This document shows positions 2,485 to 4,137 of a stretch of 5,072 bases of DNA, in pieces. The notes under the pieces were generated by a model. That model had not been told where the DNA came from, did no database searches, and saw nothing but the letters and a program-made list of their open reading frames with translations. Position numbers and translations under genes: made by a program. Source of the stretch: a virus (taxonomy: Duplodnaviria > Heunggongvirae > Uroviricota > Caudoviricetes); IMG/VR virus record IMGVR_UViG_2675903425_000026. One strand, 5' to 3'. Each line of letters starts with the position of its first letter. Position 1 is the stretch's first letter.

Positions 2485-2877
2485 TTAGTGCATCACCACA
2501 GCATTCCCTGCCGGGCCGCCGCGATTCATCTGGTCATACAAAACAACCGCTGACGCAACAAAATCATCGACATCCTTCACCAGCCGATCCCTCCGTTCGA
2601 CGATCTCACGGTAATATTCAGAACTGTGGCTGCGCATACGGGCCACCAGCAAAGGCGGCATCGCCTTTTCGATCGCCGGTAACAGAGCCTGCATTTTTTC
2701 AACAGCATCAGGGGTGTCTTTATCNNNNNNNNNNNNNNNNNNNNNNNNNNNNNNNNNNNNNNNNNNNNNNNNNNGCTCGAAATACGCTTTGGTAATTTTC
2801 GCAGCCGGTACTTTTTCGCCGTCCGGATGCGCCCAGACATTCATCGCCATGCGGATGTGTTCATGCTTGATTTTCAT
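2485..2877 (-). CDS. ydaT: YdaT-like protein (occupies the CII position between the cro-like gene and the replication genes); contains a 50-N masked segment
   Basis: 130-codon ORF; its ATG overlaps the stop of the upstream cro-like gene (ATGA, translational coupling). N-terminus MKIKHEHI matches my recollection of E. coli YdaT-family proteins. The frame is intact on both sides of the N run. Symbol assigned from memory, not a search. Confidence 0.65.
   Translation of the reverse strand: MKIKHEHIRMAMNVWAHPDGEKVPAAKITKAYFEXXXXXXXXXXXXXXXXXDKDTPDAVEKMQALLPAIEKAMPPLLVARMRSHSSEYYREIVERRDRLVKDVDDFVASAVVLYDQMNRGGPAGNAVVMH
2725..2774. other. Run of 50 N (assembly gap or masked bases) inside the ydaT-like CDS
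   Basis: Directly visible; corresponds to the X run in the overlapping ORF-track translations. Confidence 1.
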
Positions 2878-3176
2878 GAATCAACTCCATCAGATAAGCA
2901 TGCACTACAATCACCTTCAGCATGAACTACATGTGTTTGCCCCAAACGAATGCCGCTCGCATACTCAGGCCAAATAAGCTCCCAATCATGGGGTCGTAGC
3001 TCCGCCCTACTTACTTGGCCTTCCGTCGCAGATTCGATCATAAGGGCGCGGGTTGGAGATATAGCTGTTCGTCCAGACGCCATTTGCGATAAGTAAGATG
3101 GCGATACACCAAGTCTGGCCGCGAATTTCTTAGCATCACCAACCCTTAATGATTTAATAAACTCTTTTAATGTCAT
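2874..3176 (-). CDS. ydaS: Cro-like HTH DNA-binding protein (YdaS-like)
   Basis: 100 aa; HTH motif KKFAARLGVSPSYLSQMASGRTAISPTRALMIESAT. Strong SD (GAGGAAGG) before the ATG at 3176. Divergent from the repressor gene across an operator-rich intergenic region. Symbol from memory of Rac/CP-933P-type prophages. Confidence 0.75.
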   Translation of the reverse strand: MTLKEFIKSLRVGDAKKFAARLGVSPSYLSQMASGRTAISPTRALMIESATEGQVSRAELRPHDWELIWPEYASGIRLGQTHVVHAEGDCSACLSDGVDS

Positions 3177-3273
3177 ACCTTCCTCGGTTTAGTGTTTTTT
3201 TGCGAGTTTAGTGTTTAATAAACCATTAAGTCAAGTATTTGCTTGTTTAGTGATTACTAAAGATAATTACCAC
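3177..3273. promoter_or_regulatory. Divergent promoter/operator region (OR-like) between the cro-like and repressor genes
   Basis: Three direct copies of GTTTAGTG (3187-3194, 3206-3213, 3245-3252). Near-perfect palindrome GTTTAATAAAC (3213-3223). Minus-strand TTGACT (rc of 3229-3234), 18-nt spacer, TAAACT (rc of 3205-3210), oriented toward the cro-like gene. Plus-strand GATAAT (3262-3267) ends 6 nt before the repressor ATG at 3274, with a weak -35 TTGCTT at 3239-3244. Confidence 0.6.
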
Positions 3274-3645
3274 ATGCAAAAAAAAGAAATTCGCCGTTTA
3301 CGTCTCAAGGAGTGGTTTAAAGATAAAACTCTGCCACCCAAAGAGAAGAGCTACCTATCTCAACTAATGAGTGGGAGAGCCTCGTTTGGAGAAAAGGCTG
3401 CCAGAAGAATAGAGCAAACATACGGGATGCCGGAAGGGTATCTGGATGCGGAATACGCAGAACAACCGGGGGGTTCTCCACCACATGCAGGGTTAACGTC
3501 TAATCAACTGGAATTATTGCAGATTTTTTCAGCCTTCCCTGAGGATGAGCAACGCCAGATAATCAGCGAGTTAAAGCAGAAAAAAGAATCAATGGAAGAT
3601 CTCATAGCGAGATGGATTGCGGCGCAAAAATGCCGCCGCGCCTGA
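3274..3645 (+). CDS. paaR: HTH (XRE/CI-type N-terminal domain) repressor; first gene of a three-component TA operon (PaaR-like), in the CI position
   Basis: 123 aa from ATG 3274: MQKKEIRRLRLKEWFKDKTLPPKEKSYLSQLMSGRASFGEKAARRIEQTYGMPEGYLD is a CI/XRE-like HTH with no peptidase domain. Followed 20 nt later by the antitoxin gene. The track's GTG 3211 start would run through the operator repeats and is rejected. Confidence 0.75.
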   Translation: MQKKEIRRLRLKEWFKDKTLPPKEKSYLSQLMSGRASFGEKAARRIEQTYGMPEGYLDAEYAEQPGGSPPHAGLTSNQLELLQIFSAFPEDEQRQIISELKQKKESMEDLIARWIAAQKCRRA

Positions 3646-3665
3646 GTTATAAAACCGGAGGAAAC

Positions 3666-3857
3666 ATGAATAGAGCCCTTTCACCAATGGTTTCTGAATT
3701 TGAAACCATTGAACAAGAAAACAGTTACAACGAATGGCTGCGTGCGAAAGTAGCAACGAGCCTTGCAGATCCGCGCCCAGCAATTCCCCATGACGAAGTT
3801 GAGCGCAGAATGGCAGAACGCTTTGCTAAGATGCGCAAGGAACGGAGCAAGCAGTAA
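3666..3857 (+). CDS. paaA: Small antitoxin (PaaA-like, 63 aa) of a ParE-family toxin
   Basis: ATG 3666 preceded by GGAGGA SD (3657-3662). 63 aa, charged and probably disordered (MNRALSPMVSEFETIEQENSYNEWLRAKVATSLADPRPAIPHDEVERRMAERFAKMRKERSKQ). Stop TAA at 3855-3857 lies 1 nt before the toxin ATG. The track's 3612 start is an upstream extension without an RBS. Confidence 0.65.
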   Translation: MNRALSPMVSEFETIEQENSYNEWLRAKVATSLADPRPAIPHDEVERRMAERFAKMRKERSKQ

Positions 3858-3858
3858 A

Positions 3859-4137
3859 ATGTTACCCGTGTTATGGCTTGAAAGCGCAGATACCGACCTA
3901 GATGATATAACTAGTTATATTGCTCGTTTCGACATAGATGCGGCTGAACGCTTATGGCAGCGATTAAGGGGTTGTGTGCTGCCGTTATCCGAACATCCGT
4001 ATTTATACCCACCAAGCGACAGAGTACCTGGCTTGCGTGAGATTGTAGCCCACCCTAACTATATAATTCTATACCGCGTAACAACATCAAGCGTTGAAGT
4101 AGTAAACGTGATCCACGCAAGACGCCAGTTTCCCTAA
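3859..4137 (+). CDS. parE: ParE/RelE-superfamily toxin (ParE-like, 92 aa)
   Basis: ATG 3859 immediately after the antitoxin stop. Sequence MLPVLWLESADTDLDDITSYIARFDIDAAERLWQRLRG...NYIILYRVTTSSVEVVNVIHARRQFP has ParE-like size and C-terminal pattern. The track's 3763 start overlaps the antitoxin and is rejected. Confidence 0.7.
   Translation: MLPVLWLESADTDLDDITSYIARFDIDAAERLWQRLRGCVLPLSEHPYLYPPSDRVPGLREIVAHPNYIILYRVTTSSVEVVNVIHARRQFP

Follow-up and report, generated by a model that had tools for sequence, protein, structure and literature searches.

A prophage immunity switch whose repressor heads a toxin-antitoxin operon: the CP-933P/Sp12 locus in a viral genome fragment

Can the repressor that keeps a prophage silent also command a toxin gene, and if so, is such an arrangement new? 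The question is raised by a DNA stretch of 5,072 nt from a virus of the Caudoviricetes (IMG/VR record IMGVR_UViG_2675903425_000026), referred to below as the window and used for all position numbers, in which a helix-turn-helix repressor gene lies divergent from a cro-like gene and is followed in close succession by two small open reading frames (ORFs). An earlier note, made from the letters alone, had interpreted this layout as a prophage immunity switch whose CI-position repressor heads a three-component toxin-antitoxin operon of the paaR-paaA-parE type, and as probably a known system. We conclude, with a probability of about 97%, that the region represents the immunity switch of CP-933P, the lambdoid cryptic prophage of strain EDL933 that corresponds to Sp12 in strain Sakai, with the repressor gene paaR2 co-transcribed with the paaA2-parE2 toxin-antitoxin pair.

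The identity of the locus is established at the level of both DNA and protein. Positions 1-2724 and 2775-5072 match prophage Sp12 of Escherichia coli O157:H7 Sakai at 100% identity, with 0 mismatches over the 5022 unmasked bases compared, and a difference that would make the window a variant of the reference was sought across all 5022 of them without one being found. Sp12 of Sakai is described as identical to CP-933P of EDL933 (PMC8630535), with which a nucleotide comparison had been proposed in the earlier note. Furthermore, PaaA2, ParE2, the N-terminal domain of PaaR2, YdaS and YdaT are each 100% identical, over the aligned residues, to chains deposited in the PDB, with E-values from 5e-37 to 2e-63 for PaaA2, ParE2, PaaR2 and YdaS. 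The match is not a product of chance, because four of the proteins are 100% identical to PDB chains and the DNA is 100% identical to O157:H7 genomes. The window is therefore the CP-933P/Sp12 type locus itself, beyond a mere likeness of layout, and every gene and DNA site is identified here with its published counterpart; none of the published features of CP-933P differs in the window, save for a mask of 50 N in ydaT. The supposition of a known system was thereby borne out: layout and function have been published (Jurenas et al. 2021, PMC8630535; Prolic-Kalinsek et al. 2023, PMC9986795), and an earlier description of paaR2-paaA2-parE2 is reference 8 of PMC8630535. The system is already known in full, published and structurally solved, and holds nothing new for discovery. 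Statements below on DNA binding, regulation, bistability, leaderless translation, toxicity and plasmid stabilization come from published experiments on the identical sequence.

For the three-component operon, both the ORF list and the raw sequence agree with all the coordinates originally proposed. On the plus strand, paaR2 (3274-3645, 123 aa) sits 20 nt upstream of paaA2 (3666-3857, 63 aa), which is preceded by the Shine-Dalgarno sequence GGAGGA (3657-3662) and ends at a TAA codon (3855-3857); a single base (3858) then separates this stop from the ATG of parE2 (3859-4137, 92 aa, plus strand), exactly the spacing that had been noticed. The mechanical ORF list gives longer versions of the two downstream genes (3612-3857 and 3763-4137, from in-frame starts further upstream), and it is the shorter starts chosen in the earlier note that match the crystallized PaaA2 and ParE2 residue for residue. 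Residues 2-63 of PaaA2 are 100% identical to PDB 3zbe/5cw7 (also 5cze; E = 5.5e-37), and the protein matches Pfam PF21217 with 70.7 bits against a cut-off of 27, with no DNA-binding family matched. ParE2 is 100% identical to PDB 5cw7_B over 92/92 residues (E = 7e-60) and belongs to Pfam ParE_toxin (PF05016; E = 1.9e-16, 60.9 bits against a cut-off of 23), with 3kxe, 6x0a and 5ceg as more distant matches. All the traits of a paaR-paaA-parE system that can be read from sequence are thus present, namely a toxin of the ParE/RelE fold, a PaaA-type antitoxin upstream of it and a separate regulator at the head of the operon. The comparison of the translations with PaaR2, PaaA2 and ParE2 suggested in the earlier note, for which a toxin unlike ParE/RelE or an antitoxin unlike PaaA would have spoken against the operon, gave matches for all three proteins, and the toxin and the antitoxin both exceed their Pfam cut-offs.

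Published experiments describe how this operon behaves. The three genes are co-transcribed; PaaA2, which lacks a DNA-binding domain, is broken down by ClpAP and ClpXP and neutralizes ParE2; and ParE2 co-localizes with the nucleoid and induces the SOS response (PMC8630535). Additionally, the locus stabilizes an unstable mini-F plasmid as well as ccdAB does, and post-segregational killing, or addiction, by the pair has been published for the identical sequence (PMC8630535). Genome stabilization is the biological role that we infer for PaaA2-ParE2.

The gene at the head of the operon is the CI-position repressor. Over residues 1-66, PaaR2 has the same sequence as PDB 7nkv/8c3k, which bear the name 'Phage repressor protein CI', and the protein falls within phrog_5736, a family of transcriptional regulators, while its C-terminal part weakly resembles, below the family cut-off, DicA, the repressor at the matching position in prophage Qin. 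Its ATG (3274) has no Shine-Dalgarno sequence and the hexamer GATAAT (3262-3267) lies 6 nt upstream, an arrangement compatible with a leaderless mRNA; leaderless transcription of paaR2 has been established by 5′ RACE and N-terminal sequencing (PMC8630535).

Between ydaS and paaR2 lies a divergent control region of 97 bp (3177-3273), equal to the published length. In a promoter scan, PR933P, which reads into ydaS on the minus strand, was found with a -35 hexamer TTGACT (3234-3229) and a -10 hexamer TAAACT (3210-3205) separated by an 18-nt spacer. On the plus strand, PRM933P would consist of TTGCTT (3239-3244), a 17-nt spacer and GATAAT (3262-3267), hexamers that we place here because the published transcription start is the A of the paaR2 ATG (3274). 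Copies of the operator repeat GTTTAGT occur at 3187, 3206 and 3245, with a degenerate copy near 3226, about 19-20 bp apart. In the whole window this heptamer is found four times (3187, 3206, 3245 and 4209) against 0.43 expected, a number reached in 0/200 shuffles, and two further repeat families (D1 and D2) add degenerate operator copies, including one at 4231; a single operator type is thus shared between the 97-bp region and a site about 1 kb away.

That distant site is PL933P with its OL operators (4205-4252, plus strand), for which the promoter scan gave TTGACT (4222-4227), a 16-nt spacer and TAAACT (4244-4249), hexamers identical to those of PR933P. GTTTAGT-type repeats lie in OL at 4209 and 4231, and the 12 nt at 4219-4230 repeat those at 3226-3237 perfectly in inverted orientation. 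Between parE2 and these operators, an imperfect hairpin with 22-nt arms (4156-4202, plus strand) begins 19 nt past the parE2 stop and adjoins the PL operators, with a fold energy of -24 kcal/mol (z = -4.6). No U-tract directly follows its stem and a terminator scan made no call of an intrinsic terminator at 4156-4202; GGTTTAGTTTTT, which begins 7 nt past the stem, is itself an OL-type repeat. The hairpin may nevertheless mark the end of the paaR2-paaA2-parE2 transcript.

On the other side of the control region, the minus strand encodes the two remaining regulators. YdaS (2874-3176, 100 aa), a Cro-like helix-turn-helix regulator, is 100% identical over 100/100 residues to PDB 8c7k, deposited as 'Phage antirepressor protein Cro', and matches the Pfam families YdaS_toxin and HTH_3 above their cut-offs. 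The gene of the CII-like activator YdaT (2485-2877) is interrupted by the 50 N (2725-2774), which stand for 83 nt in the compared stretch of Sakai (3913-3995); a true gene of 426 nt (141 aa) therefore reads as 130 codons in the window, and its frame is kept across the mask only because 50 and 83 happen to be equal modulo 3. The N run is a masking artefact and not biology. The unmasked N-terminal 34 aa of YdaT are identical to PDB 8bt1, and the Sakai copy matches Pfam YdaT_toxin (PF06254) above its cut-off and phrog_163, annotated as 'CII-like transcriptional activator'. At the junction of the two genes, the high-affinity YdaT operator OM (2867-2884; TTGATTTTCATGAATCAA) spans the ATGA in which the stop of ydaS overlaps the start of ydaT, where the operator has been mapped by DNase I footprinting (PMC9986795). 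It is an exact match to the published 5'-TTGATTN6AATCAA-3' and the sole match in the window even at two mismatches; since a match at that tolerance arises in 53/200 shuffles and is therefore not rare by chance, the identification rests on the exact match and the published position.

Together, these elements extend the switch beyond 2874-4137, the limits first proposed for it, so as to take in ydaT and its operator at 2485-2884 as well as PL/OL at about 4205-4252. Every trait of a CP-933P-type switch that is testable in sequence was found, including the 97-bp region of shared operators, YdaT with its operator and PL933P with OL. The assignment of PaaR2 as CI-like, YdaS as Cro-like and YdaT as CII-like, given in the earlier note for CP-933P, likewise stands, as the DNA is that of Sp12/CP-933P base for base and the roles have been published (PMC8630535, PMC9986795).

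In this switch, PaaR2, in the CI position, is translated from a leaderless mRNA begun at PRM933P, while the Cro-like YdaS is made from the divergent PR933P. The two proteins compete for the overlapping repeated operators in the 97-bp region and at PL933P downstream of parE2, and this competition gives rise to two heritable, mutually exclusive expression states. The CII-like YdaT binds TTGATTN6AATCAA at the ydaS/ydaT junction and switches on a PRE-like promoter reading back towards paaR2. Transcribed together with paaR2, at the position of rexAB in lambda, paaA2 and parE2 supply an unstable, intrinsically disordered antitoxin without a DNA-binding domain and the ParE-fold toxin around which it wraps. 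Loss of the locus frees ParE2, leading to the SOS response and to cell death or arrest, and the pair would accordingly act as an addiction module that stabilizes the immunity region.

Much of this scheme has an experimental basis. PaaR2, YdaS and YdaT were shown to act like CI, Cro and CII, respectively (Jurenas et al. 2021, PMC8630535). In the same study, PaaR2 and YdaS gave intergenic footprints of 78 bp and 65 bp and both repressed PR, PRM and PL; low levels of PaaR2 activated PRM and repressed PR, like lambda CI; YdaS preferentially repressed PRM, like Cro; YdaT activated the PRE-like promoter between ydaS and ydaT; and a dual reporter revealed two mutually exclusive heritable states, each dependent on one of the two regulators (PMC8630535).

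No sequence evidence contradicting the CP-933P switch was found, and the caveats all come from the literature. A search of PaaR2 for Peptidase_S24 returned no Pfam family at E ≤ 0.01, and the autocleavage motif is reported absent (PMC8630535), so the switch is not SOS-inducible in the manner of lambda; lacking the S24 peptidase, PaaR2 is a functional analogue of CI that falls outside the lambda CI/LexA family. With plasmid reporters, about 90% of cells were in the ydaST-on ('lytic-like') state (PMC8630535). CP-933P is defective, and true control of lysis and lysogeny therefore remains putative. A further caveat concerns the molecular target of ParE2, putatively a topoisomerase. Finally, paaA2 and parE2 are transcribed whichever state the switch is in, yet no ParE2 activity is detectable (PMC8630535). 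The proposal that the silencing repressor also controls the toxin consequently holds for transcription and fails for any release of toxin that depends on the state of the switch, as ParE2 is released in neither.

Transcription in both states would also suit a further proposal, that PaaA2-ParE2 serves mainly in defence rather than simple addiction. Expressed from the repressor operon as rexAB is in lambda, the pair would be an exclusion or abortive-infection module against superinfecting phages, set off by the shut-off of host transcription or the degradation of PaaA2 on infection, or else would guard against recombinants that are heteroimmune. The position of the pair, analogous to that in cI-rexA-rexB, and the lability of PaaA2 to ClpAP and ClpXP would fit such a role, and no published test of paaR/parE in abortive infection was found, although the literature search was incomplete and such an absence is not proof. 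However, a PADLOC scan of PaaR2, PaaA2, ParE2 and YdaT gave zero matches, none of the three operon products fitting any of its models, and the published plasmid-stabilization data already give the pair a sufficient function. Overall, we regard a primarily defensive role as improbable.

More doubtful still is the suggestion that the locus is a self-contained tripartite toxin-antitoxin module, in which PaaR2 would be the detached DNA-binding half of a split antitoxin rather than an immunity repressor and its position opposite a cro-like gene would be incidental. PaaA2 does lack a DNA-binding domain and has its regulation supplied by PaaR2 (PMC8630535), PaaR2 carries no CI-type peptidase domain, the prophage is cryptic and the locus by itself stabilizes plasmids. 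A regulator dedicated to the toxin-antitoxin genes is nevertheless hard to reconcile with the behaviour of PaaR2, which acts as a repressor more readily on PR933P and PL933P than on the promoter of its own gene, at low level activates PRM, and has its operators in common with YdaS. Repeats of this operator type are found again some 1 kb off, at a promoter like PL; the paaR2 mRNA is leaderless, as is that of cI; PaaR2 weakly resembles the Qin repressor DicA in its C-terminal part; and the same switch with the same toxin-antitoxin pair is present in the isolated phage Evi, described below. We therefore consider a self-contained tripartite module very unlikely.

The weakest alternative, that ydaS-ydaT is itself a toxin-antitoxin pair and the locus comprises two back-to-back systems with no switch, draws on database names (Pfam YdaS_toxin and YdaT_toxin; PGAP 'toxin YdaT family protein') and a weak HigA-like similarity of YdaS, and can be dismissed with near certainty, as expression of CP-933P YdaT is not toxic and YdaT activates the PRE-like promoter (PMC8630535), binds DNA as a tetramer through a helix-turn-helix domain of POU-like type, has a footprinted operator that is present at 2867-2884 (PMC9986795), and belongs to a PHROG family of CII-like activators. 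The names 'YdaS toxin' and 'YdaT toxin' were rejected on published evidence (PMC8630535, PMC9986795).

The CP-933P switch thus identified can be set beside several other systems. It resembles the lambda immunity region in its divergent repressor and cro genes with overlapping shared operators, its leaderless repressor mRNA, its second set of operators at a PL some 1 kb distant, its activator in the cII position with a PRE-like promoter as target within or beside the genes of the cro side, and its two accessory genes co-transcribed behind the repressor. Unlike lambda, with which PMC8630535 and PMC9986795 state that there is no detectable sequence similarity (a literature statement, no direct comparison having been made here), it has a repressor without an S24 autocleavage domain, four 18-bp repeats instead of three operators, a YdaT with a POU-like fold in place of the CII fold, and a ParE toxin-antitoxin pair in place of RexAB. 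The prophages Rac (racR-ydaS-ydaT) and Qin (dicA-dicC) of E. coli K-12 have the same YdaS/YdaT regulator family in the same gene order, and Sp12 shares with Qin the downstream ydfC, DicF and dicB; however, neither K-12 prophage has a toxin-antitoxin pair behind its repressor, and YdaS and YdaT are only 26% and 31% identical to the Rac proteins (PMC8630535). Classical parDE systems, such as RK2 ParDE, Caulobacter ParDE1 and Vibrio cholerae ParDE2, also combine a ParE-fold toxin with a small, partly disordered antitoxin, but their antitoxin carries its own DNA-binding domain and autoregulates, whereas PaaA2 has none and the prophage repressor regulates.

At least 80% of bases 2780-5072 are carried by 371/5426 complete E. 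coli genomes. For the 961 bases that run from the control region through parE2, the corresponding number is 595/5426, nearly all at identities of at least 99%. Escherichia phage Evi (LR597642.1), with a genome of 40 kb and named in a list of coliphage isolates from infant faeces (PMC10910852), carries ydaS, the control region, paaR2, paaA2 and parE2 at 6001-7264 with 98.7% nucleotide identity. All four ORFs are intact there, and its ParE2 protein, though unannotated in the record, is identical to that of the window. The differences comprise one base in the 97-bp control region, G66E and G67I in the PaaR2 linker and K55R in PaaA2, and on its ydaT side Evi has replication genes unlike those of CP-933P. 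The occurrence in Evi suggests that the switch and its toxin-antitoxin module are not confined to defective prophages.

In the window, a replication module adjoins ydaT on the minus strand (753-2477). It comprises an HTH_36 helix-turn-helix protein in the position of the O gene (1500-2477 according to the ORF finder, with shorter starts annotated in Sakai and by PGAP) and a DnaC/IstB-like ATPase (753-1493), and agrees with the literature, where an o homologue is described on that side of the switch on which ydaT holds the cII position. Strain TR01 has the switch at 100% identity but this left part at only 98.3%. Downstream of the DnaC-like gene, a minus-strand gene of the DUF1627 family starting at 727 is frameshifted at an A7 run (T7 at 608-614), with one frame (METVLH...ELKKMALL) reaching a stop after 59 aa and the continuation lying in another frame. 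PGAP marks it as 'frameshifted' in TR01, and the Sakai record annotates the distal piece only (ECs_2274); it is probably a pseudogene of a decaying prophage.

Downstream of PL933P, two overlapping ORFs lie antisense to each other, at 4433-4789 on the plus strand and at 4568-4774 on the minus strand. RefSeq usually calls the minus ORF, a zinc-ribbon protein of 66-68 aa (ECs_2282 family; CPEC...CKNC), whereas phage Evi and strain 2013C-3513 annotate the plus ORF instead (phrog_21318). Among five relatives, four of the six substitutions in the overlap are synonymous in the minus ORF but alter the plus ORF, while in the sole strain with a PGAP-called plus ORF the minus ORF contains a stop codon. 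The few available substitutions would thus favour the minus-strand zinc-ribbon ORF over the plus ORF, and transcription from PL933P would be antisense to the minus ORF, should that one be genuine. Further to the right, ydfC starts at 4861 and is cut by the window end. An Rfam scan gave no match inside the window; the small RNA DicF (RF00039, 76.7 bits) lies just past its right end, at 6643-6694 of the compared stretch of Sakai, between ydfC and dicB. As DicF occupies this place downstream of PL933P, the PL side of CP-933P/Sp12 has the Qin arrangement ydfC-DicF-dicB-ydfD.

The answer to the opening question is therefore a known system, rightly recognized from raw sequence in the earlier note. 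The locus is the published model of a toxin-antitoxin pair whose transcription has been ceded to the control of a prophage lysis/lysogeny switch, and structures have been solved for all five of its proteins. The near-identical module of Evi would allow both an exclusion role for the toxin-antitoxin pair and a true immunity role for PaaR2 to be tested in a live phage.

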